Below the pieces are notes generated by a model that did not search any database, had not been told where the DNA came from, and worked only from the letters and a program-made list of their open reading frames with translations. The position numbers and the translations under genes are program-made. From NCBI GenBank assembly GCA_017303995.1, contig JAFLBE010000006.1:32737-96736 (forward strand): a stretch of DNA of 64,000 nucleotides, written 5' to 3'. Of the stretch, positions 5,901 to 62,116 are shown in pieces; position 1 is the first letter of the stretch, and each line of letters starts with the position of its first letter. This DNA comes from Bacteroidota bacterium (lineage in GTDB: Bacteria > Bacteroidota > JABWAT01).

Positions 5901-6388
5901 GCGAAGGATCCCGTTTTGATATTTATATTCCTGTATCTGAAAAAAGCTTGATCTTACCTATCGAAAATGAAAAAAGTGTTCATTTCGGAAACGAAACCCA
6001 GAAACAAGCTCAAACTAACCAATGTATTCTTGTTGTTGATGATGATGCTTCGATTAGGGAGCTGGCTGGCGATATTTTATCTCATTTCGGTTATGAAGTT
6101 CTTTTTGCAGTTGATGGTCTTGATGCCATTTCTGTTTTTGAAAAAAACAAAGACAAAATAAATCTGGTTCTTTTGGATATTATGATGCCAAAAATGAATG
6201 GACAGGAAGCCTATCAAGCCATTTCTGAAATAAGTCCCGAAATGAAATTTATTTTTTCAAGCGGATTCAGTCAAAATGATGCAATAGAAGATCTTGTCAA
6301 TGCCGGCAAAGCAGGATTTATTGCAAAACCCTACCATGTCTCTGCCTTTATTTTGAAAATTCAGAATACGATAAATAGTGGTACGTGA
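2945..6388 (+). CDS. Hybrid sensor histidine kinase: multi-TM N-terminus, PAS, two GAF, PAS, HisKA, HATPase_c, C-terminal receiver
   Basis: The first ~190 aa are hydrophobic. The H-box is GGMAHDFNNIL, the N and G boxes are LNLSVNARDA and GTGLGLAMV, and the receiver carries VVDDD...LLDIMMPKMNG...IAKPY. Confidence 0.85.
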   Translation: MDQKQKQIARIVSGEAYPFRNDLNIYRILSVIAAIVLTAGWFLHLEFVSVYNDPLIFRLIFSSLFLSFFILSFFFSPVRDYTVSIFYTLFSLCSIWILSLNFINNFSIEYSIGIFFVYLVFAVGIREVWFLAVYTVLMLVIPLTGLYFSTQSLNVQVVYTGLILVVLVSSGILLGLKLYFQNGFLVKTSVLSAIFKESSDMLFVTDADGYRLIAGNERAMERFGFDESNLKNLKLSDLFVLPGSWDGADDLVLFEVPVKKTGSYFWADIAAKPLAVSGFKFVVVRITDVTQRKGAEEIVEKLSMQRKRLLEISQSMLTSLSLDDIFSQISGTLKEIIDYNLCALFWVEPEIKSLKPLAIVKNNWEEFPIDNWLVPLGEGIIGRLVITGESELVNNCQNDPRSIYPPGYQPRKEHIIAIPVRIQNEVHGVFSVTRVDGPEFSQDDFELIQLFITHSIAAIQNGILYDEANRRALHSLSLMEVTKAINSTIEVDQLLDMIVEKVLDLTHSRHGALFLLNAETGNLEIGAFRGIAAETVQFLKFPVGDSIAGYVAQTGRGMLIHDVQHHPNFRNIPQLEKFTSMISIPLKIKGKVVGVMGVDRLKGEKYFSDKDFKIAQDFAEQAALALENARLFEQINQSERKYRTLFEETEDAVFVSSLDGRFLDMNPAGIKMFGYETREEILNISIARDLYFSQEEREALVDLFNREGSVKNYEITLKKKDGLPITVLQSTRLVKDSAGNPVFLRGIMKDMTEQRKLQLQLFQSQKMDSIGQLAGGMAHDFNNILGGILGYSSFLKSQISIEDEKFRYIDAIEKSAGKAAELISKLLAFARGSKSEPVPVSLNKLVNETLAILERTFDKSIEISTTLDTELPLISGDPIQLQQVILNLSVNARDAITGKGKIEITTRQFKCTSPKKLNSGEITPGKYIILSVSDSGMGMEPEIIERIFEPFFSTKEIGKGTGLGLAMVYGVVKGHEGALSVTSVPGEGSRFDIYIPVSEKSLILPIENEKSVHFGNETQKQAQTNQCILVVDDDASIRELAGDILSHFGYEVLFAVDGLDAISVFEKNKDKINLVLLDIMMPKMNGQEAYQAISEISPEMKFIFSSGFSQNDAIEDLVNAGKAGFIAKPYHVSAFILKIQNTINSGT

Positions 6389-6408
6389 TACGTGGTACGT
6401 TTTACGCT
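6381..6408. repeat. Heptad tract (gtacgtg atacgtg gtacgtt ttacgct) spanning the stop codons of two convergent genes
   Basis: The kinase TGA (6386-6388) and the PfpI TAA (6402-6404, minus strand) both lie inside the tract. Confidence 0.9.
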
Positions 6409-6935
6409 ATTTTTGGGGTCAAATAGGTCACTATTTCTGCACAGAAATCAGGTAAATCATCCGGTCTCCTGCTGGTAATAAAATTCCGGTCAGTCACGAC
6501 GGGTTCATCTATCCAGGTTGCCCCGGCGTTGATTAAATCATCCATGATTCCCGGTGTTGAGGTTAGTCTGAATCCCTTTACAATACCTGCGGAAATTGGA
6601 ATCCAGCCAGCATGACAAATGAAGGCAATTAATTTACCTGAGTGATGAAATTGACGGGTCAATTCTTTTACTTTTTCTGACCGGCGTAACTGATCAGGAG
6701 CAAATCCTCCAGGTATAATGAGCGCGTCAAAATCGGATTCAGAAATAGTTGAGATTGAAAAATCTGATTTACACGGGTACCCATGTTTCCCTTTGTAAAC
6801 CTTTTTTGCCTCGGGTCCGGCAATGGTAACGTCAGCACCTGCTTCAATCACACGGTATTTGGGATACCATAATTCAAGGTCTTCATAGATATCATCAACA
6901 AACATCAGGACTTTTTTTCCGGTAAGTGGTTTCAT
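6402..6935 (-). CDS. DJ-1/PfpI family protein (type 1 glutamine amidotransferase-like)
   Basis: Contains KKVLMFVDD, ALIIPGG and the nucleophile elbow AFICHAGW. I placed the start at MKPLTGKK (cat at 6933-6935); the longer ORF start at 7016 is also possible. Confidence 0.75.
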   Translation of the reverse strand: MKPLTGKKVLMFVDDIYEDLELWYPKYRVIEAGADVTIAGPEAKKVYKGKHGYPCKSDFSISTISESDFDALIIPGGFAPDQLRRSEKVKELTRQFHHSGKLIAFICHAGWIPISAGIVKGFRLTSTPGIMDDLINAGATWIDEPVVTDRNFITSRRPDDLPDFCAEIVTYLTPKIA

Positions 6936-7436
6936 GTGATGCAGTGTCCTTTTCTGGTTTCTAAATAGGAATAAACCTTCAATATCGTCATCCTGACTTT
7001 CAAAAAGGGATTTCAAACCAGATTATTCATTGGTAATCAAATTGGAGATGATTTTTATGCGCCTTTAAATATTGCAATTCCCTGATTTGGAGGCGAAAAC
7101 GCATAGAATTGAAGCAAATAACATGAAAAATAAAAATTATTTGCAGAGAAACTAATATTTTTAACAATTAGTGTGAAAATGTTATTAAATTTGTGAGATA
7201 AAAATTTAATAAATTCGTAATCAAAGTATCTGGTCAATTCTAAAAAGTCTCAAAGATAGCATGTTCAATTGGTCTAAAACCCAGTGTAATTTTGAATTGT
7301 GATCATGTAATTCTGCGAAATTCATCGATTAATTGGTAATTAAGATGGTTTTTAGAAATGTTCATCATCAAGAAGCCTCTGTTAGATAAATAAAGCATTG
7401 AAATAAATAGATCAAAAGAATTAGAAAAGTTGGGAA

Positions 7437-8411
7437 ATGAAATACTCGGTATTATTTGTAGATGATGAATCCCAGATTCTTGAAACAATAAGAAATATTT
7501 TTGATAAGTTTTACACCATTTACACCGCAGAAAATGGTCAGAAGGCGCTTGATATCCTTGCAAAGACAAAGGTTCAGGTTATTGTATCTGACCAGAGAAT
7601 GCCAGGAATGTCGGGCACAGAATTTCTTAAAATCTGTAAGGAAAAGTATCCTGATACGGTTAGAATCCTGGTAACTGGTTTTTCTGATCTCGATTCAGTG
7701 ATAGAAACCATTAATACCGGCGATATCTTCAGATTTATTTCAAAACCATGGAAACTTGAAAAATTAAAAGAAACCATTGATTTAGCAGGTCAGTTATTCG
7801 ACCAGGTTCAGGCAGTAAAAACCAAGTCTGATCTTCCATCCAGATCATTTTCAGGTCCGGCTGTATTACAGTCCCATGCACCTTCAGTTTCTACTGGCTT
7901 TAAAAGCAAATCTCACTTGTTATTTGTTGATGAAAGTGAATCTCAACTTTTTAGTTATCGTGAAGTATTTGGGTCAGATTATTTTGTTCATGTTGCCAAT
8001 TCTGCTGAAAAAGCATTTGCTGCTCTGGCTCAATATCCGATTGCGGTATTAGTTTGTGAAGCACAAATTGGTGAAACTGATGGAATTGATTTTATTTCAG
8101 TTATCCGTGATGACCACCCTGATGTTGTTCCCATTTTACTTACCGATATAAAAGATATCGATTTGGCCGTCAGGTTGATTAATGAAGGACGAATATTCAG
8201 ATATTTTATTAAACCCTACCGTAAAGAGCATTTTGTTTCTGAAATGGAAAAAGCAGTTCAGCAACATCAGAATTATTCAGTTAAACCTGAATTGAATATC
8301 AGAAAAATTGAGGATGAATTAATTTCTGAAAAAGGAAAAGAAAAACCGGCAACATTGAGTGAATCATTGCGGTTAACCAGAGAACGATTGAATAAGCGTG
8401 TTGGGTATTAA
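7437..8411 (+). CDS. Response regulator with two tandem receiver (REC) domains and no recognisable output domain
   Basis: REC1 carries VLFVDDE...IVSDQRMPGMSG...LVTG...ISKPW. REC2 carries LLFVDES...LVCEAQIGETDG...LLTD...IKPY. Confidence 0.8.
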   Translation: MKYSVLFVDDESQILETIRNIFDKFYTIYTAENGQKALDILAKTKVQVIVSDQRMPGMSGTEFLKICKEKYPDTVRILVTGFSDLDSVIETINTGDIFRFISKPWKLEKLKETIDLAGQLFDQVQAVKTKSDLPSRSFSGPAVLQSHAPSVSTGFKSKSHLLFVDESESQLFSYREVFGSDYFVHVANSAEKAFAALAQYPIAVLVCEAQIGETDGIDFISVIRDDHPDVVPILLTDIKDIDLAVRLINEGRIFRYFIKPYRKEHFVSEMEKAVQQHQNYSVKPELNIRKIEDELISEKGKEKPATLSESLRLTRERLNKRVGY

Positions 8412-8493
8412 AAGCCCGTGCCAAGGTAATTCTGTAAATTGCCCTGGTTTTGATTTAATTGTGTGTTTTTTGTACAGAAAGGGAAAATGATCT

Positions 8494-10119
8494 GTGAGCG
8501 GAAATAAGAAAATGATTGTTCTTTTTCGTCATGCCAAGGCAGAAATGGAAGCCGCTACTTTTTCAGACCGGGAGAGAAGTTTGACCGGTGATGGAAGAAA
8601 TGAAGCGCTTCGGGTTGCAAGACGACTAAAAGAATCCGGACTGAAGGTTGATTTGATTCTTTCAAGTCCGGCCTTACGTGCTATTGAAACTGCCGAAGTC
8701 GTGGCTGGTGAATTAACTGGTAACCCGCAGTCAATCCTGGTGAACGAAAAACTTTATGATGCACCGGTCTCATCAATTTTGGAAGTCATTCTTCAGACAG
8801 ATCCGGCATTAAATTCAATTCTGCTTGTCGGACATAATCCTGATCTTGAAAAAGTAGCAGGTTTATTCTGTGGCCGCCACGATATTTCACTTCCAACATC
8901 AGGTGCAATTTCTATTTTATTTGAGTCAGATAACTGGACAGATTTACAATCGGGAAAAGGGGTAATCGTTATGCAACAGGTTGCAAAAACCAAACAATCG
9001 CCTGAGTACCAGGCATTAAAAAAAATCATTTCAGAAGGACTTAACGCTGCCGTTAAATCCAGCTTAAGTGGTTTGAATTCGAAATCAAAAAACAAAGCCA
9101 CCAAAGTCATTGAAAATGCAGTCAATAAACTTGCAAAAAAATTGACAAAAGCAATCGGTGAATCATCCAAGCAGGATGAGCCAGCAGTCAGTCCAAAACC
9201 TGTAAAAAAACCAATTTTAAAAGCCACTCCTTCAAAGCGGGGTCGTAAACCTGCAGTAAAGGCTGTTACTTCAACAGAAAAGCCTGAAGCCAAAAAGCGT
9301 GGCAGAAAACCTGCGATCAAAGCAGAAAAGGCAACACCTGTCGTTTCAGCAGAACCAAAGAAGCGCGGACGTAAACCGGGTGCAAAACCTGAAGTTGCAA
9401 AACCAGTTTCAACTGAGCCCAAAAAGCGTGGCAGAAAACCAGCAGTTAAAGTAGAAAAAGCGGCACCTGTTGTGTCATCAGAACCGAAAAAACGTGGACG
9501 TAAACCAGGTGTAAAACCTGCAGTTTCAAAACCTGTTTCAACTGAGCCCAAAAAGCGTGGCAGAAAACCTGCCGTTAAAGCAGAAAAAGCAGCACCGGTT
9601 GTTTCATCAGAACCGAAAAAACGCGGGCGTAAACCGGGTGCAAAACCAGCAATTGCAAAACCTGCATCATCTGAGCCCAAAAAGCGTGGCAGAAAACCAG
9701 CTGTGAAAGCAGAAAAAGCAGCACCGGTTGTTTCAGCTGAACCGAAAAAACGTGGACGTAAACCAGGCGTAAAACCTGTAGTTGCGAAACCCGATTCAGC
9801 AGAACCCAAAAAACGTGGCAGAAAACCAGCGGTCAAAGTAGAAAAAGCTCTCGTTGTAAAAGCTGAAAAACCCAAAACGGTTGAACCAAAACCAGCTAAA
9901 AAAGTTGCTTTACCTAAAGTAAAAGTTGAAAAAGTACCAAAAGTAAAAGCAACCGTTGTCAAAGTTCCTAAAGTTAAAAAGCCAGCGAAAGTAAGACCTA
10001 CAAAGCGACCAAAGCCATCGTGGGTTGAAGTTTCGGATGTACCTGCAGCAGTTGTTGAAACTGTGACCCCTGCTCCGGTTGAAACTCCGAAAGCAAAGGG
10101 TCGTCCTAAAAAGGCATAG
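8494..10119 (+). CDS. SixA-like histidine phosphatase domain fused to a Lys/Ala/Pro-rich, AT-hook-like repeat tail (histone H1-like)
   Basis: The N-terminal ~160 aa carry LFRHAKAE (RHG-type motif), a conserved Arg/Thr context and LVGHNPDLE. The C-terminal ~330 aa are built from repeated EPKKRGRKPAVKAEKAAPVVS and EPKKRGRKPGAKPxVAKPVST units and end in KAKGRPKKA. The ORF starts with GTG at 8494; the ATG at 8512 (MIVLFRHAKAE) is an equally plausible start. Confidence 0.75.
   Translation: MSGNKKMIVLFRHAKAEMEAATFSDRERSLTGDGRNEALRVARRLKESGLKVDLILSSPALRAIETAEVVAGELTGNPQSILVNEKLYDAPVSSILEVILQTDPALNSILLVGHNPDLEKVAGLFCGRHDISLPTSGAISILFESDNWTDLQSGKGVIVMQQVAKTKQSPEYQALKKIISEGLNAAVKSSLSGLNSKSKNKATKVIENAVNKLAKKLTKAIGESSKQDEPAVSPKPVKKPILKATPSKRGRKPAVKAVTSTEKPEAKKRGRKPAIKAEKATPVVSAEPKKRGRKPGAKPEVAKPVSTEPKKRGRKPAVKVEKAAPVVSSEPKKRGRKPGVKPAVSKPVSTEPKKRGRKPAVKAEKAAPVVSSEPKKRGRKPGAKPAIAKPASSEPKKRGRKPAVKAEKAAPVVSAEPKKRGRKPGVKPVVAKPDSAEPKKRGRKPAVKVEKALVVKAEKPKTVEPKPAKKVALPKVKVEKVPKVKATVVKVPKVKKPAKVRPTKRPKPSWVEVSDVPAAVVETVTPAPVETPKAKGRPKKA
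9352..9850 (+). repeat. In-frame 129-bp tandem repeat, about 3.9 copies, inside the SixA-fusion gene
   Basis: Units begin with gaacc at 9352, 9481, 9610 and 9739, an exact 129-nt spacing. Each unit encodes two KKRGRKP motifs (21 + 22 aa). More diverged half-units start near 9235. Confidence 0.9.
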
Positions 10120-10160
10120 CTGAAGAAATATAAGTATAGAATTGTGTGAGAAAATTTGAA

Positions 10161-10208
10161 CTGCCGCCTTTTCTTCTGAAATTTGGAAGGATTGGCGGCG
10201 GTTTTTTT
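10161..10208 (+). terminator. Rho-independent terminator after the SixA-fusion gene
   Basis: ctgccgcc (10161-10168) pairs with ggcggcgg (10194-10201), an inner cttc/gaag stem adds to it, and ttttttt follows. Confidence 0.75.
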
Positions 10209-10260
10209 AAAGGGCAAAAGTGGGTGCCCGATGGCCGTATCGAACCGAAAGAAAGTGGTT

Positions 10261-13321: not shown

Positions 13322-13334
13322 ATTCAGGAAGAAA

Positions 13335-13369
13335 GCTATTGGCTTTTAGCTTTTAGGTAATTTCAATTA
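13335..13369. repeat. Heptad tract plus conserved tail (gctattg gctttta gctttta gg taatttcaatta)
   Basis: Seen directly, 14 nt after the ppx stop. It is a near-copy of 61774-61801. Confidence 0.85.
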
Positions 13370-16391: not shown

Positions 16392-16428
16392 GTTACTGGT
16401 CACGGGTCACAGATTACGAGTTACGGGT
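16391..16428. repeat. Heptad tract (ggttact ggtcacg ggtcaca gattacg agttacg), left arm of an inverted pair
   Basis: Begins on the last base of the dctM stop codon. Its first 20 nt are complementary (18/20) to 16526-16545. Confidence 0.85.
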
Positions 16429-16516
16429 TGAATTCAAGAAAAGCTGAAACTGAATTGTTCTTTTCATAGAATGTAACCCCCAAAAGGCGATTGGGAGTAT
16501 GCTGTGATTTCTAAAC

Positions 16517-16545
16517 CTGTGATAAGTGACCCGTAACCCGTAACC
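16517..16545. repeat. Heptad tract (ctgtgat aagtgac ccgtaac ccgtaac c), right arm of an inverted pair
   Basis: Ends 9 nt before the GNAT gene ATG. It matches 50696-50716 at 19/21 positions. Confidence 0.85.
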
Positions 16546-20619: not shown

Positions 20620-20661
20620 TAAGGTTTAAGGAGTAAGGCGTAAGGGTTAATGGTTAATTGT
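20620..20661. repeat. Heptad tract of 6 units (taaggtt taaggag taaggcg taagggt taatggt taattgt)
   Basis: Seen directly, preceded by gtaggca. It shares words with 32364-32391 (reverse complement) and 61866-61900. Confidence 0.9.
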
Positions 20662-20794
20662 CAGAATCCGGATTTTCAGGATTGGTGGATTTTCAGGATT
20701 TTAAAATCCTGCACATTTAAAATCCTGATATTTTTGCTTTTGGCTTTTAATGTTTGTTTTTCATCCTGCTAATCCTATAATTCTGCAAATCCTG
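20662..20794. promoter_or_regulatory. Array of AATCCTG/CAGGATT words that includes a perfect 18-bp palindrome
   Basis: caggatt occurs at 20677 and 20694. aatcctg occurs at 20704, 20720 and 20788, with the variants catcctg at 20762 and aatccta at 20771. The palindrome caggattttaaaatcctg spans 20694-20711. The array lies upstream of the hydroxylase gene (start 20550, minus strand). Confidence 0.45.
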
Positions 20795-20803
20795 ATTCAG
20801 ACA

Positions 20804-20838
20804 ATAAAAAAATGCCGGGCTCATTACCCGGCATTTTT
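20804..20838. terminator. Bidirectional rho-independent terminator downstream of the T9SS protein gene
   Basis: Sequence is aaaaaaa atgccggg ctcatta cccggcat ttttt. Confidence 0.8.
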
Positions 20839-27001: not shown

Positions 27002-27210
27002 TTTAATCTTTCTAAAAGTCATCCCTGCTGTAACCGAACACAATTCCTGTTTCAGCTTCAGTACGGATGATAATGAATTCTGATTTCGTTACCTTTACCC
27101 AGTTCCGGTTAAATTCCGGGAAACGGGTGCCGCCACTGAAATGCAAATACGGTACCAAAAAAAAACGTGCCACTTTAACCGGATACCGTGACAGAATGGC
27201 GGAAAAACAA

Positions 27211-27280
27211 GTTATAAGTGATAAGTTACAAGTCGAGCAAAGCGAAGATCCCGAACTAGCTTCGGGGTGGTAAGTGATTT
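27211..27280 (+). repeat. Composite element: GTNAYAA heptads, a conserved hairpin core, then GTGRTAA heptads (10 heptads in phase)
   Basis: Sequence is gttataa gtgataa gttacaa gtcgagc aaagcga agatccc gaactag cttcggg gtggtaa gtgattt. The hairpin is cccgaa/ttcggg (27250-27266). It lies in the lon / bshB1 divergent intergenic region. Confidence 0.85.
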
Positions 27281-27361
27281 TGGGCAAAGATCCGGTCATT
27301 GACCGACACTTCGTTGCACTTCTAACTTCTGTCTTCTATCATCTGAATTTAAGGATTTAAA

Positions 27362-28093: not shown

Positions 28094-28121
28094 GTAGGCA
28101 GTAGGTAGTAGGCAGTAGCGG
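28094..28121. repeat. Heptad tract (gtaggca gtaggta gtaggca gtagcgg)
   Basis: Starts 4 nt after the bshB1 stop. Confidence 0.9.
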
Positions 28122-28155: not shown

Positions 28156-28192
28156 AAACCACCCCCAGCCCCTCCTTTGGAAAAGGAGGGGA
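28156..28192. repeat. Hairpin element AAACCACCCC..CCCCTCCTTT-gga-AAAGGAGGGG
   Basis: 10-bp stem (28169-28178 with 28082-28091 equivalents, i.e. 28169-28191 overall). It has the same leader and stem as 61993-62035. Confidence 0.85.
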
Positions 28193-28206: not shown

Positions 28207-28246
28207 AATTGTATTTCTCTGCGTGTTCAGCGCCTCTGCGGTAAAG
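28207..28246 (+). repeat. Solo copy of the ATTGTATTT-CTCTGCG..CAGCGCCTCTGCGGT repeat
   Basis: Sequence is attgtatttctctgcgtgttcagcgcctctgcggtaaag. It matches the reverse complement of 58684-58712 and the 59282/59339 repeat units. Confidence 0.8.
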
Positions 28247-28288
28247 TTTTCATTCAACATTTATAATTTAAAATTCAAAATTATCTCC

Positions 28289-29059
28289 ATGACCCCTTCC
28301 ATTTCAGACTTACTCGATTTCGCTATTTCAATCACCGAAGCTGCCGGTAAGGGAACCCTTGATTATTACCAAACCGACATTGCCGTTGAAACCAAATCTG
28401 ATGCGTCCCCCGTAACGATTGCAGATAAAGAAGCTGAGCAATTTATCCGGAACGCAATTCAGTCCAGATTTCCAGATCATCAGATTATCGGCGAAGAGTA
28501 CAGTGATAAAATCACATCAAGTCCGTACAAATGGATTATCGATCCGATTGACGGAACAAAAAGCTTCATCGCCGGTGTGCCGTTTTATTCGAACCTGGTC
28601 GGACTGGAATTTGAAGGTGAAATCATTGTCGGGATTGCCAATTTTCCAGCATTGAAGGAAATGGTTTATGCAGGAAAAGGACTTGGCGCCTGGTTCAATA
28701 GTAAACCTGCGAAAGTTGGATCGGTCACTGAAATCTCAAAAGCCAGAATTATGGTTACCGATTTCAGGGATTTTGAAAAAAGAGAAGCCTGGAAAACCTT
28801 TAAACCGATTTTGGACTGTTGCCGTTTTCACCGGACGTGGGGAGATGCATACGGTCATGCCATGGTGGCAACTGGCCGAGCTGAAATTGCCCTTGATCCG
28901 TTCATGAATCCGTGGGATTGTGCACCGTTTGGAATTATTTTGAAGGAAGCAGGCGGGTTTTTCACTGACTGGAACGGAAATGACACGATTTACGGACCCA
29001 ATGCCGTTTCGTCAAACCCTGAACTAAGAGAAAAAGTGCTTACCTGCCTTAAGGATTAA
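28289..29059 (+). CDS. Inositol monophosphatase family protein (SuhB/HisN-like)
   Basis: Contains IGEE, WIIDPIDGTKSF and WDCAPFGIILKEAGG. I placed the start at MTPSISDLLDF, because the longer GTG-initiated ORF would begin inside the repeat at 28207-28246. Confidence 0.8.
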   Translation: MTPSISDLLDFAISITEAAGKGTLDYYQTDIAVETKSDASPVTIADKEAEQFIRNAIQSRFPDHQIIGEEYSDKITSSPYKWIIDPIDGTKSFIAGVPFYSNLVGLEFEGEIIVGIANFPALKEMVYAGKGLGAWFNSKPAKVGSVTEISKARIMVTDFRDFEKREAWKTFKPILDCCRFHRTWGDAYGHAMVATGRAEIALDPFMNPWDCAPFGIILKEAGGFFTDWNGNDTIYGPNAVSSNPELREKVLTCLKD

Positions 29060-30149: not shown

Positions 30150-30300
30150 TTTAAAAACCTTGAATTGAATAACTTAAACACAGAGACATACAGGAGTTTA
30201 ATTTCAGTGAGTTACACTGAGAAATTAATTCTAATTTTTAAAAAAAAACTCTGTGATACCCTGATTGTAATTCTCTGTGTAACTCTGTGGTTAAACGAAT

Positions 30301-31168: not shown

Positions 31169-32272
31169 ATGAATGGACTCAGATACCGGGAATTTATTCC
31201 CCAGATAATCACCGGCGAAGACCGGTTCGAACAAATCCTCAACATCTTCTCACAGTTGCTTCAGTACACCAATGGTGATGCAGATGAAGCGCTAGACTGG
31301 ATGAGGCAGCTTAATAAAAAGCACAAAATGTTCGATCAGGACTATACTTTTGATGATTTTAAAAAAGATCTCAAAACTCACGGTTACCTGAAAGATCAAC
31401 CCGGACAGAAATTCCAGATTTCATCCAAGATGGAACGGTATATCAGATCCCGTGCTTTTGAAGAAATCTTTTCGAGTATGAAACGGTCGGTCACCGGGAA
31501 TCACCGCACGAATTTTACCGGTTCGGGAGATGAACAAACCACCGATAACCGCCCTTTTCAGTTTGGTGACACCACCGATCTGCTTGACGTGACCCGCACG
31601 ATTTACAACGCCCATCTGAATCACGGCATTGATAACTTCCAGCTTCAGGAAAAAGATATGGAAGTTTATGATACCCAATTTTTCACGAGTCAGGCAACAG
31701 TGATCATGATTGACCTGAGCCATTCGATGATTTTATACGGCGAAGACCGGATCACCCCGGCAAAAAAAGTGGCGATGGGACTTTCAGAGCTGATCATGAC
31801 CAAATATCCGAATGACAGCCTGAATATTCTGGCTTTCGGCGATGAAGCCTGGGAAGTTTCTGTGAAGGATTTACCCTACCTGGCGGTCGGACCTTATCAC
31901 ACCAACACCAAAGAGGGACTTCAACTTGCCCGGCATATTCTTCGCAAAAAAAATACGACCAACAAACAAATTTTCATGATAACTGACGGGAAACCGTCGT
32001 GCATCAGAGAAGGCGGAAAGTTGTATAAAAACTCGTTTGGAATGGATCCGAAAATATTAAACCGGACGCTGGATGAAGCTGAAATCTGCCGGCGGGAAGG
32101 AATTTCGATCACTACGTTTATGATTGCCCGTGATGCGATTCTTCAGGATTTTGTTCGGGATTTGACTAAAATCAATCAGGGACGTGCTTACTTTTCTTCC
32201 TTGAATAAGCTGGGTGATTTTTTATTTGAAGATTACATTTCGAACCGGAAGAAAACGTACAAGGGCGGATGA
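31169..32272 (+). CDS. von Willebrand factor A (VWA) domain protein
   Basis: The MIDAS context VIMIDLSHSM...FMITDGKPS is in the C-terminal half. I placed the start at MNGLRYREF, because the longer ORF from 30944 would overlap the divergent gene. Confidence 0.65.
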   Translation: MNGLRYREFIPQIITGEDRFEQILNIFSQLLQYTNGDADEALDWMRQLNKKHKMFDQDYTFDDFKKDLKTHGYLKDQPGQKFQISSKMERYIRSRAFEEIFSSMKRSVTGNHRTNFTGSGDEQTTDNRPFQFGDTTDLLDVTRTIYNAHLNHGIDNFQLQEKDMEVYDTQFFTSQATVIMIDLSHSMILYGEDRITPAKKVAMGLSELIMTKYPNDSLNILAFGDEAWEVSVKDLPYLAVGPYHTNTKEGLQLARHILRKKNTTNKQIFMITDGKPSCIREGGKLYKNSFGMDPKILNRTLDEAEICRREGISITTFMIARDAILQDFVRDLTKINQGRAYFSSLNKLGDFLFEDYISNRKKTYKGG

Positions 32273-32279
32273 GGAATCA

Positions 32280-32321
32280 GTTACAAGTGGCAAGTTATAA
32301 GTGGTAAGTGGTCAGTGGTAT
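32280..32321. repeat. Heptad tract of 6 units (gttacaa gtggcaa gttataa gtggtaa gtggtca gtggtat)
   Basis: Starts 8 nt after the VWA gene stop. Confidence 0.9.
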
Positions 32322-32363
32322 GAGATACGCTTTGTGGGGTACGTTCTAAGTATTCCAGCTTTA

Positions 32364-32391
32364 ACCTTAATCCTTATGCCTTACGCCTGAA
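32364..32391. repeat. Heptad tract (accttaa tccttat gccttac gcctgaa)
   Basis: Ends 12 nt before the methyltransferase stop. It is the reverse-complement word family of 20620-20661. Confidence 0.85.
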
Positions 32392-32402
32392 TTCCACCTA
32401 TC

Positions 32403-33260
32403 TCAGATCAGAAAAAACGAATAGTGATTTTGCTTCCCGCCAGGTTTCCCGGTAATAACAATCCCGATTGACTTCAAATCAATTGAAACAGCCACTTGCC
32501 GGTGAGTTTTGATTTTACTCCACGCTCTTTTCATTCCATCTGACCACGAAATATCATCCGCAATAATAATTGAACCCGGTTCACAATGAGTAAGGATTTG
32601 TTCAAAATAAGTTTCTGTTGCCAACTCATCATGATGTCCGTCGATGTAGGCGAACTGAAGTGACTTGAGCTTTTGCAGTGCTCCCGGAAGTGTATCCGAG
32701 AAAAGTCCGGTAATGACTTCAACCCGGTCTAATCTGAGATCTGCGAGGTTTTTGCGGGCTATTTCAGCTAATGAAGGATCACCTTCAAGGGAAATTAAAG
32801 AACCGTTTTGATTGTACTTTAACCCTGCTGCCAGCGTTGCGGTTGAAAAGCCGGCGTTGGTTCCGAGTTCAATGATTGTTTCCGGCTTAAATTCCACAAC
32901 AAGAAGGTAAAGCAGTTTTGCCCAGAAGTCCGGTTTTGTTTCTCTGGAAACAATTTTTCCTAGTGTCGTTTCGTTTGCCTTTGAAAAATCACCATCTCTG
33001 ACCAGATTCCGGTTACCAGCCCCAAAATCAAGGCGGTTTATTTTCTGTTGGGATTTACAACTTTCCCGTCTGAGTTCCTTTATTTGCACCAGAATCGAAC
33101 TTCTTTCCGTGTAAGCTGCTCTGCTTAACCATTTGGCAAGAACCCCGCCGAGTTGCAGTTCCATTCCGCCAGATTTCTGCATGCGCCTCAGTTGTCCTTG
33201 CTGAAAACTGAAAAGTGCCGGATTGACACGGTTGCAAAGCCAGTTATAAATGTTGATCAT
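32403..33260 (-). CDS. Class I SAM-dependent methyltransferase (O-methyltransferase family 3 / Methyltransf_24-like)
   Basis: IIELGTNAGFSTATLA (motif I), ISLEGD and FAYIDGHH. Its ATG overlaps the kefB TGA (ATGA at 33260-33257). Confidence 0.65.
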   Translation of the reverse strand: MINIYNWLCNRVNPALFSFQQGQLRRMQKSGGMELQLGGVLAKWLSRAAYTERSSILVQIKELRRESCKSQQKINRLDFGAGNRNLVRDGDFSKANETTLGKIVSRETKPDFWAKLLYLLVVEFKPETIIELGTNAGFSTATLAAGLKYNQNGSLISLEGDPSLAEIARKNLADLRLDRVEVITGLFSDTLPGALQKLKSLQFAYIDGHHDELATETYFEQILTHCEPGSIIIADDISWSDGMKRAWSKIKTHRQVAVSIDLKSIGIVITGKPGGKQNHYSFFLI

Positions 33261-35779: not shown

Positions 35780-35879
35780 AATCTATTTATCTCAAAAAAG
35801 GAATTGTAAAAATAAAGCAAAAAATCCGGTGAAGCACTTGATTTAAAAAAGGTGTTATGATATACTGCATATATATACA

Positions 35880-36018
35880 GTTATAAGTGACAAATTATAA
35901 GTTATAAGTCGAGCGAAGCGAAGATCCCGAACACTTTCGGGGTTACAAATTATAAGTTATAAATCGTAAAAAGCGAAAATCCCGATTCATATCGGGGTGA
36001 TAAGTAATAAGTGATAAG
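35880..36018 (+). repeat. Two tandem composite elements (heptad arms plus a conserved hairpin core) that abut the radical-SAM gene ATG
   Basis: Unit 1 is gttataa gtgacaa attataa gttataa gtcgagcgaagcgaagatcccgaa-cact-ttcgggg. Unit 2 is gttacaa attataa gttataa atcgtaaaaagcgaaaatcccgat-tcat-atcgggg gtgataa gtaataa gtgataa g, followed directly by ATG at 36019. Confidence 0.85.
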
Positions 36019-50683: not shown

Positions 50684-50718
50684 CTTAACCCGTAATCTGT
50701 GATAAGTAACCTGTAACT
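50684..50718. repeat. Heptad tract (cttaacc cgtaatc tgtgata agtaacc tgtaact) between mlaF and mlaD
   Basis: Ends 4 nt before the mlaF stop codon position (50722). It matches 16517-16537 at 19/21 positions. Confidence 0.85.
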
Positions 50719-50721
50719 AAT

Positions 50722-52357: not shown

Positions 52358-53119
52358 ATGCGGTTGATTTCATGGAATGTAAACGGAATTCGGGCAGTTC
52401 AGAAAAAAGGATTCATTGATTGGGTGACGAAAACCAATCCGGATATTCTGGGACTTCAGGAAACCAAAGCACATCCCGATCAGCTCGATGAAACCTTATT
52501 GCAAATTCCCGGTTACCAGGTTTATTTTGATTCCGCTGAAAAAAAAGGCTATTCAGGAACAGCAGTTTATACCAAAATTCAACCGGAATCTGTTTCTTAT
52601 GGTCTCGGAAATCCAAAATTTGACACTGAAGGAAGAACTGTTCGCTTGGACTTCAAGGATTTCACCTTCTTCAATATTTATTTCCCGAATGGTGGTCGTG
52701 GCGATGACCGGGTTCAGCACAAACTGGAATTTTATGATGAGTTTTTGAGGATAAGTGAAGATCTGAGAAAACAGGGACGGGCTGTAATTGCCTGCGGTGA
52801 TTATAACACTGCTCATAAGGAAATTGATCTTGCCCGCCCGAAGGAAAATGTGAAAACATCTGGCTTCATGCCCATTGAAAGAGCCTGGCTCGATAAATAT
52901 GTTTCTTTGGGATATATCGACACCTTTCGCGAATTTGATCAGTCACCCGGAAAATATTCCTGGTGGGATCAGCGGTTCAACAGTCGTGAACGGAACACTG
53001 GCTGGCGGATTGATTACTTTTTTATTACCCCCGACCTCAAGTCAAGATTAAAAAATGGATTTATCTGGTCTGACGTTATGGGTTCAGATCACTGTCCGGT
53101 GGGAATTGATATAGATTAG
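52358..53119 (+). CDS. xth: Exodeoxyribonuclease III
   Basis: MRLISWNVNGIRA...LQETK...GDYN...SDHCPV. An aaggag lies 5 nt upstream of the ATG at 52358. Confidence 0.9.
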   Translation: MRLISWNVNGIRAVQKKGFIDWVTKTNPDILGLQETKAHPDQLDETLLQIPGYQVYFDSAEKKGYSGTAVYTKIQPESVSYGLGNPKFDTEGRTVRLDFKDFTFFNIYFPNGGRGDDRVQHKLEFYDEFLRISEDLRKQGRAVIACGDYNTAHKEIDLARPKENVKTSGFMPIERAWLDKYVSLGYIDTFREFDQSPGKYSWWDQRFNSRERNTGWRIDYFFITPDLKSRLKNGFIWSDVMGSDHCPVGIDID

Positions 53120-53162
53120 AAAACAGTGGTAAGTGATAGCAATATTATTTGGTAAAAACCTT

Positions 53163-54092
53163 TTACTTACCACGTGTTACTTTTTCTGCCCTTTTCCGTT
53201 CATCAAATTCTGTCCAGATGAAGAAAAGTGCAATTTCTGCATATTTTCCCCAGATTTTAAGTATTGCTGCAAATTCATCGTCAGAGAATGGCGGTACCTC
53301 ATAGACCGAAGCCAGCACTTTTCTAAAATTGTTGTCAATCGGGACTTCTGCCTCCATCCTTCCGAACCCAAACGGAACCGCAAATGCCGACGTGTATTTA
53401 CCGATACCTTTTATTGACAACAGATTCGTAATTAATTCTGTGTCTGTTAGTGATTCCCAGTCAGAGAAAATAATTTCTTTTTTTGCAAGTCGTTCTGAAA
53501 GACCGCCCAAATAGTCAATTTTCTGGCGGCTGAGTGAAAGCTCCTTCAGTTCTGGTTGCGTGGCTTTTGCAAATTCATCAGGTCTCGGAAAACAAAGAAA
53601 ATCCATATTCTGCCAATCAACCCGGGTTCCATATTTTTCCATGAGATTTTCAATGATTCGCTTGGCAAGCCGGTCGCTGACCTGACTTGAAATAATGCTG
53701 AATGCAATACATTCCCAGGGTGACGGAAATATCACAGGATGGAATCCTTTTCTTTTTTCAAGCAGCGCCTGCAACTTTGGGTCAGCGACTTCCGTAAGAA
53801 CCCTCCTGAGATCGTAATTCATTGAAAATTGTCGACTTACAGCAGTTATTACTTCCCCGGTTTGACTGTCTGAAAGTCTATCAGGAATATCAAGTTGTAA
53901 TTCCGGTTTTTCAATATCCCCATTCCATGTGAGTGCAAAAGCAGTCGAAAACGTGTCAAGTGACAACGATTGGAAGTAGGTTATTCCCGTCCAGGCATGA
54001 AAATAAGTCCTTGGCCAGGATTCAATCTGACTGATGGAATGGCGGAAATCAAAAGGTGGCGTTGGTGTGATCCGAATGGATTTCATGGTCAA
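53163..54092 (-). CDS. HhH-GPD family DNA glycosylase (AlkA-like 3-methyladenine glycosylase II)
   Basis: HhH motif LLSIKGIGKYTSAF followed by a conserved Asp (PIDNN). The length and N-terminal domain are AlkA-like. Confidence 0.65.
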   Translation of the reverse strand: MTMKSIRITPTPPFDFRHSISQIESWPRTYFHAWTGITYFQSLSLDTFSTAFALTWNGDIEKPELQLDIPDRLSDSQTGEVITAVSRQFSMNYDLRRVLTEVADPKLQALLEKRKGFHPVIFPSPWECIAFSIISSQVSDRLAKRIIENLMEKYGTRVDWQNMDFLCFPRPDEFAKATQPELKELSLSRQKIDYLGGLSERLAKKEIIFSDWESLTDTELITNLLSIKGIGKYTSAFAVPFGFGRMEAEVPIDNNFRKVLASVYEVPPFSDDEFAAILKIWGKYAEIALFFIWTEFDERKRAEKVTRGK

Positions 54093-55737: not shown

Positions 55738-55749
55738 AAAATTCAATTC

Positions 55750-57625: not shown

Positions 57626-57634
57626 AAAGGCTCC

Positions 57635-58675: not shown

Positions 58676-58683
58676 TTTTTATT

Positions 58684-58727
58684 CACCGCAGAGGCGCTGA
58701 GAGCGCAGAGAAAAACACAGAGAAATT
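58684..58727. repeat. Left inverted repeat of the GxxExxY cassette (caccgcagaggcgctgagagcgcagagaa plus acacagagaaatt)
   Basis: 24 of 29 positions match the reverse complement of 59282-59310. Confidence 0.8.
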
Positions 58728-58795
58728 CGTTTTATAGTTAAATTCAAAGACAAAAACTTGAGGCAGATTTTTAATAAAATTGTGTTTTAGTATAA

Positions 58796-59188
58796 TCAAA
58801 AATTATTGACAAGTCGTTTTATTCCGGATTTCAAAACCGGAACATTGAAATTGATTATAAGCCCAAGTTTTTTATTTGCAAGGCGTAAATAGGTAATTAA
58901 CTGAGCATCGAAAATGGGAATCAGGTTTTCAACTGATTTCAACTCAAGAATGATTTTATCTTCAACCAGAAAATCCATATAAAAATCTTTGCCCGTTGGA
59001 ATTCCTTTGTAAATCACAGGAATTGGAACCTGGGTTTTATATTGAATCTGGTTTAATTCAAATTCCTTTTCAAGACAAACCTGATAAACAGATTCCAAAA
59101 GTCCGGGTCCTACCTGTTTATGTACTTCGATGCAGGAATTAATGATTTTTCCTGAAAGTTGATTATAGTAATCCTGATCAAACTGCAT
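58796..59188 (-). CDS. GxxExxY family protein (PD-(D/E)XK nuclease-like)
   Basis: 130 aa with the GPGLLESVY signature, plus DFLVEDKIILELK (the D...E.K nuclease-like motif). Confidence 0.8.
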   Translation of the reverse strand: MQFDQDYYNQLSGKIINSCIEVHKQVGPGLLESVYQVCLEKEFELNQIQYKTQVPIPVIYKGIPTGKDFYMDFLVEDKIILELKSVENLIPIFDAQLITYLRLANKKLGLIINFNVPVLKSGIKRLVNNF

Positions 59189-59204
59189 TTACTATTCTAA
59201 ATAA

Positions 59205-59372
59205 TATATTTAATAAGTTGTATTTTCTCTACATTCACAGCGTCTCAGCGGTCGAATTTAATCAATAAATTGTATTTGAAATTCTCTGCGTTCCCAGCGT
59301 CTCAGCGGTCGAATTTAATCAATAAATTGTATTTGAAATTCTCTGCGTTCCCAGCGTCTCAGCGGTCGAATT
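59205..59372 (+). repeat. 57-bp tandem repeat, about 3 copies (ttctctgcgttcccagcgtctcagcggtcgaatttaatcaataaattgtatttgaaa)
   Basis: ctct anchors lie at 59227, 59284 and 59341, an exact 57-nt period. Copies 2 and 3 are identical over 34 nt. The array ends 3 nt before the aguB stop. Confidence 0.9.
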
Positions 59373-59375
59373 ACG

Positions 59376-60248: not shown

Positions 60249-60494
60249 AACAGTCCTCTTTTCAAATTCAGTTAAAACCTGCAAAGGTAGGAAATTGACA
60301 GATTAAAGGGAAATGAATGGCAGATAAGGGTTAACCACGCCCAAGCTGAAGCACGGGTCTTTTTGAAAAAACACGAAGGACACGAAAGGGGAAAAAGGTG
60401 AGTCTAAATAAAATGCAAAAAGGAATTTTAAAGAAAAAGCACCTGGTTTCGTCCGGAGTATGTCTGTTGGTTTCCTTTAAATTTGTGGCCGGAC

Positions 60495-60652
60495 GAATGG
60501 AAGGTTTGGCATTTGAGAATCCGTCAGCTAAAGCAGACGGCAATAATATTTATAAAATTGAATGGTGACACAGGCATTTAATTGCCGTCTGCTTTAGCTG
60601 ACGGTTCATTTGAATGATCAAGAATTCTGGGTTTTAACCCAAACTTCCATTC
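60495..60652. repeat. Long inverted repeat with a perfect 24-bp core stem
   Basis: ccgtcagctaaagcagacggcaat (60521-60544) is exactly complementary to attgccgtctgctttagctgacgg (60581-60604), leaving a 36-nt AT-rich loop. The outer arms are gaatggaaggtttgg (60496-60510) and ccaaacttccattc (60639-60652). Confidence 0.85.
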
Positions 60653-60681
60653 CCGTAACCCGTAATTCGTGACCCGTAACC
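60652..60681. repeat. Heptad tract (cccgtaa cccgtaa ttcgtga cccgtaa cc)
   Basis: Seen directly, about 60 nt upstream of selU. Confidence 0.9.
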
Positions 60682-60739
60682 ATTCCGTCCCCGGTATTTT
60701 AAAATTTCGTATCTTTACAATTTACTTTCTGCAAAATCT

Positions 60740-61774
60740 ATGACGTTCCACTGCGACATTTCTGAATTCCTCGTCAAACGAAAACAATTTCCCGTTTTTG
60801 ATGTCCGTACCGAAGCAGAATTCCGGCAAGGGCATATTCCCGGCGCATTGAATCTCCCTCTTTTTTCTGTTGAGGAACGGCATATTATAGGATTGACCTA
60901 CAAAACAGAAGGCAAGCAAGCTGCTATTCTGAAAGGGCTGGATTTTGTCGGACCGAAAATGCGGCCAATCATCGAACAGGTTAAATCGGTTACCGATTCC
61001 CGGGTTGTTTTGGTTCATTGCTGGCGTGGCGGAATGAGAAGTGGTGCCGTTGGTTGGTTGCTAGGATTTTACGGTTTCACGGTTTATATCGTCAATGGCG
61101 GATATAAAGCTTATCGCAGGCATATTCTTGAGGAATTTAAAACATCAAAACCACTGATCATTCTGGGCGGAAGAACCGGCTCCGGGAAAACAGATGTGCT
61201 TCGACTCCTTCCGGAACGAAATCAACAGATCATTGATCTGGAACTGCTTGCCAATCATAAAGGTTCTGCTTTTGGTGACATTGATCAACCGGCACAGCCG
61301 ACTCAGGAACAGTTTGATAATGATCTTGGGATGGATTGGGTTTCGGTAAATCCTGAAAAAGTGGTCTGGCTGGAAGATGAAAGTCACAAAACCGGATCCA
61401 TTCAGATCAATGAATATTTCTGGCCGAAAATGAGAACGGCGCCGGTAATCTATCTGGATATTCCGGTTCAGGAACGGGCGAAAAAGCTGGTTGAAGAATA
61501 CGGAAAAACCGATCCGGTCAACCTGGAAAAATCAATCCTGAAAATCCGGGAAAAACTGGGCGGAACCGATACGAAACAATGTCTTCTCTGGCTTGAAACC
61601 GGTGACTGGCTGACCTTATCTGAATTTCTGTTGACCCGGTATTACGATCCGGGTTATGACTTCGGGACCTCAAAACGGGATCCGGAATCTATTATTCGTG
61701 TTCCCTGTGAAAAGATTGATCCGGCTGGAAATGCTGACCGTGTGGTGGAAGCAGTTAAAGCTGTTAGCTTTTAG
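60740..61774 (+). CDS. selU: tRNA 2-selenouridine synthase
   Basis: Rhodanese domain (FDVRTEAEFRQGHIPGALNLPL...VHCWRGGMRSG...GGYKAYRR) and P-loop GGRTGSGKT. Confidence 0.85.
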   Translation: MTFHCDISEFLVKRKQFPVFDVRTEAEFRQGHIPGALNLPLFSVEERHIIGLTYKTEGKQAAILKGLDFVGPKMRPIIEQVKSVTDSRVVLVHCWRGGMRSGAVGWLLGFYGFTVYIVNGGYKAYRRHILEEFKTSKPLIILGGRTGSGKTDVLRLLPERNQQIIDLELLANHKGSAFGDIDQPAQPTQEQFDNDLGMDWVSVNPEKVVWLEDESHKTGSIQINEYFWPKMRTAPVIYLDIPVQERAKKLVEEYGKTDPVNLEKSILKIREKLGGTDTKQCLLWLETGDWLTLSEFLLTRYYDPGYDFGTSKRDPESIIRVPCEKIDPAGNADRVVEAVKAVSF

Positions 61775-61801
61775 CTATTGGCTGTTAGGAAATTTCAATT
61801 A
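61760..61801. repeat. Heptad tract plus conserved tail (gctgtta gctttta gctattg gctgtta gg aaatttcaatta) overlapping the selU 3' end
   Basis: The last five selU codons and the TAG stop (61772-61774) lie inside the tract. Positions 61774-61801 match 13335-13369 at 26/28 once one heptad is removed. Confidence 0.85.
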
Positions 61802-61803
61802 GT

Positions 61804-62035
61804 CCCCCTTTCAAGGGGGTGTCCCGTAATCGGGACGGGGGTGTAGCTCAACAATAAAGTGAAATGCTAAGGGCTAAATGGTTAATGGTTAATGCAATAG
61901 ATTCCCCTCCTTTTTTAAAGGAGGGTATGTCACGGTCACTGAGCTGAGTCGAAGTGCCCGGGACAGTGTGGTTTTGTTTATAGAAATTCGATAAACCACC
62001 CCGGCTTCGCCACCCCTCCTTTCAAAAAGGAGGGG
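61804..62035. repeat. Cluster of four GC-stem hairpins with one heptad tract between them, in the selU-selD spacer
   Basis: The hairpins are ccccct-ttca-aggggg (61804-61819), gtcccg-taat-cgggac (61821-61836), ccctccttt-ttt-aaaggaggg (61905-61925) and cccctccttt-caa-aaaggagggg (62013-62035). The heptads gctaagg gctaaat ggttaat ggttaat gcaatag lie at 61866-61900. Confidence 0.85.
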
Positions 62036-62116
62036 AATTTAAACAAATAACAACAGGCAATTCGCAATTTGCTTCGCAGAACTTCGTTTCGTCATTCGTA
62101 ATTCGGAATTATACTC

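Follow-up and report, generated by a model that had tools for sequence, protein, structure and literature searches.

What are the degenerate tandem repeats with a unit of seven nucleotides that accumulate at gene ends in a 64,000-nt stretch of a Bacteroidota genome (GenBank assembly GCA_017303995.1, contig JAFLBE010000006.1, positions 32,737 to 96,736; below, the window), and do they serve as a regulatory device? The first-pass annotation of the window listed 17 such loci and suggested terminator or insulator activity, a binding array, or a product of a repeat-generating process as possible explanations. We observe a strong overrepresentation of period 7 in the spacers, with tracts of such repeats located at gene boundaries, oriented relative to genes, and apparently gained in a narrow clade. 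Among the suggested explanations, the product of a repeat-generating process fits best. We consider the tracts to be a lineage-specific burst of widespread intergenic heptamer repeats, most likely selfish or neutral non-coding DNA and not a regulatory device, a reading that we hold with about even confidence.

Pfam annotation of approximately 50 open reading frames (ORFs) of the window confirmed the gene ends used below, as well as the operons mlaE-mlaF-mlaD and selU-selD. It also identified sorting domains of the type IX secretion system (T9SS) encoded in the window, which, together with the label "Bacteroidetes bacterium" carried at NCBI by the nearest metagenome-assembled genomes (MAGs), places the host in Bacteroidota, in agreement with its earlier assignment to the Fibrobacteres–Chlorobi–Bacteroidetes (FCB) group. 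Representation of the lineage is poor: among the GTDB representatives, no Lon match exceeds 59%. As a control set we used 80 loci from many phyla, taken as Lon homologues from GTDB genomes (at most 59% identity).

Heptamer tracts at gene ends

Tracts were identified via a lag scan that required 15 or more matches in a 21-nt window and discarded low complexity, and with Tandem Repeats Finder (TRF). Over the whole window the lag scan yields 19 tracts at lag 7 and 0–6 tracts at each of the other lags from 4 to 15, and period 7 constitutes 15 out of 46 TRF rows. Fifteen of the 19 tracts are located in the 10% of DNA that is intergenic, and the remaining four touch ends of coding sequences (CDSs) or a mis-called start. 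In spacers extended by 15 nt per side, 17 lag-7 tracts comprise 594 nt (8% of spacer DNA), compared to 0.20 ± 0.42 tracts, maximum 2, in 300 dinucleotide-preserving shuffles of these spacers, so that the proposed enrichment of period 7 holds. Lags 5, 6, and 8–11 yield no tracts in the extended spacers.

The repeats are degenerate, with lag-7 identity of 0.70 inside tracts and few perfect stretches. Period-7 units are visible at all 17 loci listed initially (three weaker ones, at 50684, 53127, and 62058, do not reach the scan threshold), and additional tracts are found at 27316–27346, 28250–28286, 35942–35971, and 53163–53190. In agreement with the earlier observation, no tract lies in the body of a CDS: one of the two apparent hits to CDSs covers the final 30 nt of ppx, and the other corresponds to a mis-called N-terminus. 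The first possible start of the inositol-monophosphatase gene, GTG at 28223, is probably wrong (28223–28290); in the sister species introduced below the gene is called after the A/T-rich tract, and hence we assign this tract to the leader and not to the CDS.

The same tracts, identical or with one single-nucleotide polymorphism (SNP), are present in assemblies from SRR13786856, SRR13786854, and JGI 3300022231. As these are independent assemblies from other samples, the tracts are not an assembly artefact. One contig of the SRR13786854 assembly of the same organism (L119) ends at the equivalent of window position 35935, inside a cluster of hairpins and tracts of family F5 (see below), which indicates that the repeats fragment short-read metagenome assemblies.

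The position of tracts relative to genes was compared with random placement of tracts within their own spacers. Thirteen of the 20 intergenic tracts are at most 14 nt from a CDS boundary, with 5.0 expected (P < 1e-4), thus confirming a positional bias towards gene boundaries. Approximately 10–12 tracts abut or overlap stop codons, and 4–5 are found at start codons (16517, 27316, 35997, and 62058); hence the claim that most tracts begin 0–14 nt from a stop codon holds only in part. Some stop codons are indeed supplied by tracts: the kinase TGA (6386–6388) lies inside GTGATAC, and the selU TAG (61772–61774), inside AGCTTTTAGC. The tract in the mlaF-mlaD operon spacer (50684..50719) was also borne out. 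The C-terminus of SelU is …VVEAVKAVSF in the window, …VVEALGRLKA in the sister species, and …LVSDFAKKVINL in a relative with 74% identity, at equal total length, and therefore tracts have replaced about six ancestral codons.

Moreover, the tracts are oriented relative to genes. On the tract strand, followed 5' to 3' in the direction leaving the nearest CDS, G exceeds C in 18 of 21 tracts (p = 0.0015) and in 14 out of 15 tracts within 15 nt of a CDS, the overall composition being 179 G vs. 85 C. On the plus strand G exceeds C in only 13 of 21 tracts, and hence the rule is relative to the gene and not to replication. At the mRNA level, trailer tracts are G/U-rich and C-poor, and leader tracts, C/A-rich and G-poor. 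Only the F5 clusters of two divergent spacers deviate from the orientation rule.

Both trends were reproduced in an independent set. The pattern of the hairpin element described below was scanned once against metagenomes, yielding 18 loci, 12 of them from Ga0209460 (sister species). In ten Ga0209460 loci non-orthologous to the window, 11 out of 16 tracts are at most 14 nt from a CDS edge (2.6 expected, P < 1e-4), and G exceeds C in the direction away from the CDS in 15 of 16 (p = 5e-4), the families being the same. The edge position together with the strand rule therefore points to an orientation-specific process, and we infer that either orientation-specific insertion or selection on transcripts has fixed the orientation.

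Three further regularities were considered and rejected. Tracts do not provide back-up stops in all three frames (out of 33 frames, 20 are closed in the sense and 21 in the antisense direction), leaders are not depleted of start codons (8 vs. 9 start triplets), and a universal chirality of inverted pairs across phyla, with the G-rich arm at the 5' side, is seen in just 8 of 12 cases (p = 0.39).

Word families, the nested hairpin, and relatives

When set in register, the tracts constitute about eight families: F1 (GTGGTAC / GTACGTN), F3 (AGCTNTT), F4 (GGTYACN), F5 (NRYAAGT), F6 (TAAGGNN grading into TAATGGT), F7 (GTAGGNA), F8 (TTCG stutter), and F9 (CTTCTNN). This agrees well with the initial description of several word families in non-coding DNA at gene ends, similar to the short tandemly repeated repetitive (STRR) sequences of cyanobacteria. 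F1, F3, F4, F5, and F6 recur at 2–6 loci each. In F1, 18 nt are identical between 6378(–) and 20839(+), variable positions included; block TCACAGATTACG is common to two copies of F4, and the gradient from TAAGG to TAATGG is alike at four F6 loci. As distant loci share multi-unit blocks including variable positions, the tracts are related by copying between loci and not by local slippage alone. Unit similarity decays slowly, being 0.70, 0.66, 0.60, and 0.49 at lags 7, 14, 21, and 28, respectively. Position-specific conservation of the units is not taken as proof of constraint, since their harvest by core motif is circular and clustering of columns could also come from descent.

Homology between loci halts at tract edges, with the exception of two composites. 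In one of them, F3 is followed by AGGWAATTTCAATTA, at gene 3' ends at 13334 and 61759. In the other, F5 tracts are split at 27234, 35910, and 35965 by a 34–35-nt element, CGAGCGAAGCGAAGATCCCGAA-loop-TTCGGGGT, whose excision yields a seamless NRYAAGT/NRYAAGT register at all three sites. In Ga0209460, 11 out of 12 copies of this hairpin are embedded in F5 tracts with unchanged register and orientation, flanked by 1–5 units on either side; for the window and the sister species together, the hairpin occupies the same F5 unit boundary in 14 of 15 copies. Related hairpins of other lineages are found without heptamers, and the hairpin family is thus older and more widespread than its association with heptamers. 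For example, loci L100, L102, L103, and L109 (GC content 0.37–0.44) contain tandem arrays of related hairpins (…AAGCGAAGATCCCG-loop-CGGGGT CGGAGCGTAGCGTAGATCCCG…) and no heptamers.

The distribution of tracts among relatives differs sharply with distance. Locus L094, which is syntenic to the window and encodes BshB1 with 98% identity, contains 5 lag-7 tracts in 20.7 kb (2.4 per 10 kb, compared to 3.0 per 10 kb in the window), and tracts are also present in L091 (98% SelU identity). Since the DNA identity of these two "98%" relatives to the window is only 85–93% (approximately 90%), they represent a sister species and not a strain. Lag-7 tracts are absent in L095 (83% BshB1 identity, 21 kb), L098 (78% BshB1 identity, 15 kb), L082 (74% SelU identity, 21 kb), and L085 (64% SelU identity, 11 kb). 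The selU-selD spacer is 342 nt long in the window vs. 9 nt in L082, and in L085 the genes overlap by 4 nt; the bshB1 ATG lies 165 nt from a conserved leader motif in the window vs. 34 nt from it in L095, and no proto-units are seen at the orthologous sites of the tract-free L095. As judged from these comparisons, the tracts entered as inserted material in the common ancestor of the two sister species.

All tracts shared by the window and the sister species differ in detail: F5 has 6 vs. 5 units and F6 has 5 vs. 11 units, the order of F9 units is shifted, and different small elements are inserted in or beside the F7 tract. The hairpin-tract modules in the radical-SAM leader are present in one of the two species only, both hairpin copies being missing from the sister species. 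Homology between the two species breaks exactly at tract edges or stop codons. Tract columns have 86.2% identity and 29% gaps, while the respective values for other spacer DNA are 85.3% and 25%. Hypervariability between strains was considered and rejected, as the relatives compared are a sister species and the divergence of tract columns is similar to that of other spacer DNA. Unlike phase-variable contingency simple sequence repeats, the tracts show no polymorphism of unit number within the species: apart from one SNP, the sequences of five tract loci agree in 2–3 independent samples (a small set, in which samples may be related). Given the spacer-like divergence and the identity within the species, we see neither sequence constraint on the tracts nor evidence of their hypermutability.

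Known heptamer repeats and the origin of the tracts

The analogy with cyanobacterial STRR sequences turned out to be a correct lead. These heptamers, reportedly described by Mazel in 1990, are said to have units CCCCAGT, TTGGTCA, or CAACAGT, and for Nostoc, Elhai in 2008 reportedly described heptamer repeats accompanied by very small hairpin elements. Like the tracts studied here, they comprise several heptamer families in the spacers of one genome with associated small hairpins, whereas the host phylum and the units are different, as is the hairpin, here CGAGCGAAGCGAAGATCCCGAA-loop-TTCGGGGT. The present element resembles such nested hairpins in being shorter than 40 nt, placed at a fixed unit boundary, and patchy between relatives. 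No doublets or near-triplets of the STRR1–3 units were found.

Intergenic heptamers are known far beyond cyanobacteria. Heptanucleotide repeats are the most abundant class of long simple sequence repeats (SSRs) in many genomes, with polymerase slippage proposed as the cause (Mrazek 2007, as presented in PMC4679880 and PMC4692102), and the most abundant, still unexplained, intergenic periodic repeat across prokaryotes (Mori 2019, PMC6344855). The tracts in the window share with this class the overrepresentation of 7-nt tandems, intergenic location, and sporadic occurrence across phyla, but are short (2–7 units) and degenerate (about 70% unit identity), belong to at least eight families, and were gained in a narrow clade. 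In agreement with the latter survey, most of the 80 loci in our control set have 0–1 tracts per 20 kb, and a minority of scattered loci matches the window in tract density, each with its own words. Such tract-rich loci are found in Desulfobacterales (L035, 1335–1436 and 4452–4605), Planctomycetota (L043, 4784–5684), Nitrospiria (L050, 2904–3006, 5776–5866, 7418–7519, and 12966–13041), Acidobacteriota (L073, 2146–2243 and 5074–5178), Nitrospirae (L075, 635–721), and Verrucomicrobia (L038 and L077). Their words include ATCGAGN, AATGCAR, CAGCTNT, CACCTNN, and others, often as inverted pairs around a small hairpin.

Two published systems are especially close. Repeats GGGAATC in Xanthomonas and GGGGAYT in Anabaena/Nostoc are located 0–50 bp from ORFs and can overlap stops, their G-rich strand is coding after stops and non-coding before starts, inverted pairs occur, and the position is kept between close relatives at variable length and sequence, with no association with mobile elements (Rehm 2015, PMC4692102). 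We derived the same edge position, stop overlap, strand rule, and inverted pairs independently; unlike these repeats, the tracts have other words and no G-quadruplex potential, and are accompanied by the nested hairpin and small elements. Accordingly, GGGAATC and GGGGA(C/T)T yield no doublets and no near-triplets in the window and the sister loci. Direct repeats of TAACTGA abut starts in Beggiatoaceae, cyanobacteria, and five Bacteroidetes, with other heptamer repeats in the same Bacteroidetes spacers (MacGregor 2015, PMC4679880). The similarity comprises 2–6 intergenic units at ORF boundaries, a preferred orientation, and splitting of some sets by related 7-mers, and, in register, a single mismatch separates the complement of F5 (CAGTTAT/AAGTTAT) from TAACTGA. 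Still, TAACTGA repeats form one family and mostly precede starts in forward orientation, whereas here there are many families, and only 4–5 of approximately 21 tracts abut starts, the majority being past stops; the window contains 18 TAACTGA singletons and no doublets.

Thus the suggestion that no equivalent had been described in the FCB group does not hold, given the heptamers in five Bacteroidetes (PMC4679880), their presence throughout prokaryotes (PMC6344855), and the published edge and strand rule (PMC4692102). As to whether the tracts were already described for this lineage, the class is known, but not for this lineage or these words. Hence our observation is a further example of a widespread, already reported and unexplained heptamer class and not a new kind of system.

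The history of the tracts as selfish or neutral DNA could be the following. Seven-base units would multiply locally by slipped-strand mispairing or unequal exchange, whereas copying of multi-unit blocks between loci is shown by the shared blocks, and the NRYAAGT family hosts the 34–35-nt hairpin mini-element at its fixed unit boundary and orientation. As the comparison with relatives shows, gene junctions that had been tight received the repeat material in the ancestor of the sister species. The repeats extend into genes as far as protein function permits, in places giving rise to new C-terminal residues and stops, and are bounded by selection on coding sequence. As a 7-nt unit shifts the reading frame (Mrazek 2007, as presented in PMC4679880), the tracts are kept out of CDS bodies. 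Unstructured leader and trailer RNA, as well as long hairpins resembling repetitive extragenic palindromic (REP) elements where two tracts are inverted, are likely by-products.

Several observations do not fit this reading easily. The edge position (P < 1e-4, observed twice) and the orientation (18/21 and 15/16) exceed the purely neutral expectation, and the rule common to these tracts and the Xanthomonas and Nostoc repeats may hint at a shared function or mechanism. Nine of 11 tract positions are common to the window and the sister species despite approximately 10% DNA divergence, and variable positions of F5 are limited to a K-R-Y alphabet. No transposase or other mobilizing enzyme is found among the approximately 50 Pfam-scanned genes of the window, and active slippage is not demonstrated, since there is no unit-number polymorphism at five loci within the species.

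The best surviving alternative, which we nevertheless consider unlikely, is that the tracts act in cis as arrays to which a protein specific to single-stranded RNA or DNA binds. With its footprint of about 7 nt, this protein, for example of the cold-shock-domain, S1, or RRM type, would modulate translation initiation at leaders and mRNA decay or read-through at trailers. It would contact the 4–5 fixed bases per unit, the variable positions being immaterial to it, in accord with the structure of units as a core plus a variable spacer; the strict position at starts and stops, the strand orientation, the lack of RNA structure that would make the tracts accessible, and the conservation of positions between the sister species are also consistent with binding. 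A similar argument was made for TAACTGA, with S1, Csp, and CsrA as candidates (MacGregor 2015, PMC4679880). However, at least eight cores in one genome would require many binders or a very loose one, the tracts are absent from relatives with 64–83% protein identity that have the same genes, and they evolve as fast as other spacer DNA. Moreover, the flanking genes have no common function, and the 60652 tract appears to lie upstream of the likely promoter and not in a leader.

Rather improbable, too, is the possibility that the tracts are terminal or subterminal repeats of non-autonomous mobile elements, similar to REP elements or MITEs (miniature inverted-repeat transposable elements), moved by some enzyme, so that spacers would be inserted elements, and solitary tracts, half-elements or footprints. 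Indeed, inverted pairs enclose whole spacers: the inverted F4 pair of the dctM-GNAT spacer (16392–16545) folds into a long hairpin of –55.5 kcal/mol (z = –5.28, 0 of 200 shuffles), the inverted F5 pair near 53120 (53112–53200) also forms a hairpin (z = –2.94), and further inverted pairs are seen in L110, L112, and several other phyla. The recurrent F3 + AGGWAATTTCAATTA composite, the 61759 site, filled in the window and empty in the sister species, and the fixed register of the hairpin element point in the same direction. On the other side, most tracts are solitary, and in many spacers the tracts at the two edges come from different families and form no pairing, as in the 32268–32408 spacer (z = +0.9). 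Target-site duplications are not evident, and neither a transposase nor, specifically, a REP-associated tyrosine transposase (RAYT, IS200/IS605-like) is present among the approximately 50 Pfam-scanned genes of the window. Tandem 7-base units also seem too dense for typical sites of double-strand-DNA transposases. Compared with REP elements, bacterial interspersed mosaic elements (BIMEs), and MITEs, the tracts are similarly small non-coding gene-end repeats that form hairpins when inverted and vary between close relatives, but their base unit is a direct 7-nt tandem repeat and not a palindrome.

It is a speculative and doubtful variant that the tracts and the nested hairpin are substrates of a putative dedicated machinery reading the 7-nt phase (a single-strand nuclease, transposase, or polymerase). 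If this were true, the edge and strand rule could be a signature of one general mechanism behind the prokaryote-wide excess of period 7.

A role of the tracts as transcription terminators, insulators, or mRNA-stabilizing structures we regard as quite improbable. Escherichia coli REP elements within 15 nt of stops have terminator, insulator, or mRNA-stabilizing roles, many tracts are right past stop codons, and inverted pairs produce strong hairpins between genes. However, single tracts are unstructured as RNA, with minimum free energy (MFE) from 0 to –9 kcal/mol (z-scores from –1.6 to +1.4) and an MFE of 0 for several leader tracts, and they follow no U-run rule. The 20839 tract remains unpaired between the stop and a separate canonical terminator, and thus the proposed terminator activity is not upheld. 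In addition, the mlaF-mlaD and selU-selD operons contain tracts, although termination there would be detrimental, and a quarter of tracts are at start codons. No Rfam families or tRNAs are found under the tracts.

Finally, formation of G-quadruplexes or i-motifs, put forward for the heptamers of Xanthomonas and Nostoc (Rehm 2015, PMC4692102) and suggested here by the same ORF-edge position and G-rich-strand rule, has a negligible probability, as no tract has four runs of at least three G or C, the units being of the GGTTACG, AAGTTAT, or TAAGGNN type. Since the tracts obey the same rule without G-quadruplex potential, G-quadruplexes cannot be the common cause of the shared position and strand rule, and the published rule becomes separated from G-quadruplex chemistry, holding for words that cannot form these structures.

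Viewed as a burst of selfish or neutral repeats, the system makes the timing and mode of gain visible, as inserted material in a narrow clade with close tract-free relatives for comparison, and such a clean comparative system could help to explain the high frequency of period 7 in the spacers of prokaryotes. The mini hairpin with its strict unit-boundary context may serve as a probe for the copying mechanism across genomes. The tracts are also relevant for annotation, as they create new C-termini and stops, lengthen operon spacers, and break metagenome assemblies.

Tract coordinates and other small repeats

Table 1. Heptamer tracts of the window (positions in window coordinates).
Position	Strand	Tract	Context
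6378..6406	+	F1, GTGGTAC GTGATAC GTGGTAC GTTTTAC	fills 13-nt convergent spacer, supplies kinase stop
13334..13369	+	F3, AGCTATT GGCTTTT AGCTTTT + module AGGTAATTTCAATTA	12 nt past ppx stop; composite again at 61759
16392..16430	+	F4, GGTTACT GGTCACG GGTCACA GATTACG AGTTACG	begins at dctM stop codon
16517..16545	–	F4, inverted	9 nt ahead of GNAT start; with 16392–16430 closes whole spacer into hairpin
20620..20661	+	F6, TAAGGNN x4, then TAATGGT, TAATTGT	gradient also at 61866, L091, L112
20839..20866	–	F1	3' UTR of T9SS BNR gene, between stop (20874) and canonical intrinsic terminator (20806–20838)
27209..27280	+	F5, NRYAAGT units, split by 35-nt hairpin at 27234–27268	conserved in sister species
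27319..27346 (scan start 27316)	–	F9, CTTCTAA CTTCTGT CTTCTAT CATCTGA	15 nt ahead of bshB1 (PIG-L) start; units shifted in sister species
28094..28121	+	F7, GTAGGCA GTAGGTA GTAGGCA GTAGCGG	3 nt past bshB1 stop; sister copy split by different 25-nt insert
28250..28286	.	A/T-only period-7 tract (TTCAAAA-like)	inositol-monophosphatase leader; unit number differs in sister species
32279..32327	+	F5, 6–7 units	6 nt past VWA gene stop; 5 units in sister species
32359..32392	–	F6	10 nt past stop of convergent methyltransferase gene
35879..36018	+	F5 cluster, tract-hairpin-tract-hairpin-tract	ends at radical-SAM start; hairpins 35910–35943, 35965–35998; only 2.4 units in sister species
50684..50719	–	F4	2 nt past mlaF stop, within mlaF-mlaD operon spacer
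53124..53190	.	two short F5 tracts, inverted	between and into ends of convergent genes; fold into hairpin (z = –2.94)
60652..60681	–	F4	58 nt upstream of selU; sister DNA homologous downstream of tract, unrelated upstream
61759..61801	+	F3 + module AGGAAATTTCAATTA	supplies last codons and stop of selU; absent at sister-species site
61866..61894	+	F6, about 5 units	selU-selD spacer; 11 units in sister species
62058..62110	–	F8, loose TTCG type	ends 6 nt ahead of selD start

Other small elements are found in the same spacers. A second hairpin family, (AAACCACCCC…)CCCCTCCTTT-loop-AAAGGAGGGG, has three spacer copies beside tracts (28156–28191, 61904–61925, and 61993–62035), the copy at 28156 being absent from the sister species, and hairpins CCCCCTTTCAAGGGGG and GTCCCGTAATCGGGAC neighbor the copies of this family (also 61804–61836). 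The dispersed element CACTTCGACTC(N)GCTCAGTGACCG is present in non-orthologous spacers, at 61933–61954 (–) in the window, at approximately 14920–14945 in L094, and in L110 and L113; in L094 it stands in place of the inner part of the VWA/methyltransferase spacer.

A small gene encoding a PD-(D/E)XK_3 protein (PF13366; 58796–59188, minus strand) is flanked by inverted CGCAGAG/CTCTGCG modules (58676–59375), and one of the flanks is a 57-nt tandem repeat (2.6 copies, 59225–59372, 96% match). The gene with its flanks looks like a small mobile cassette, and a nuclease of this kind is a candidate for acting on spacer repeats. Module ACCGCAGAGGCRC recurs at 28230 (–), 56876, and 58685.

In the spacer at 30150–30300 a long imperfect inverted repeat is formed by CACAGAG/CTCTGTG words (…AACACAGAGA… / …CTCTGTGTAACTCTGTGG…); it is shared by the sister species but not by the 83% relative, whose two genes overlap. 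Between the two heptamer tracts of another spacer, at 20670–20815, we observe a degenerate stutter of period 8–9 with AATCCTG / CAGGATT words in both orientations, for which TRF reports period 9 at 20670–20702. Just upstream of the F4 tract preceding selU, a perfect 24-nt inverted repeat (CCGTCAGCTAAAGCAGACGGCAAT … ATTGCCGTCTGCTTTAGCTGACGG) with a 36-nt loop is located at 60521–60604, and the equivalent position in the sister species contains a different inverted repeat (CCCTGAAAAATGTCAG … CTGACATTTTTTGTCAGGG). Finally, positions 9286–9848 in the CDS 8494–10119 are occupied by a tandem repeat of 129 nt (43 codons; 4.3 copies, 86% identity), which encodes a lysine- and proline-rich (KKRGRKPG-like) region after the histidine-phosphatase domain.

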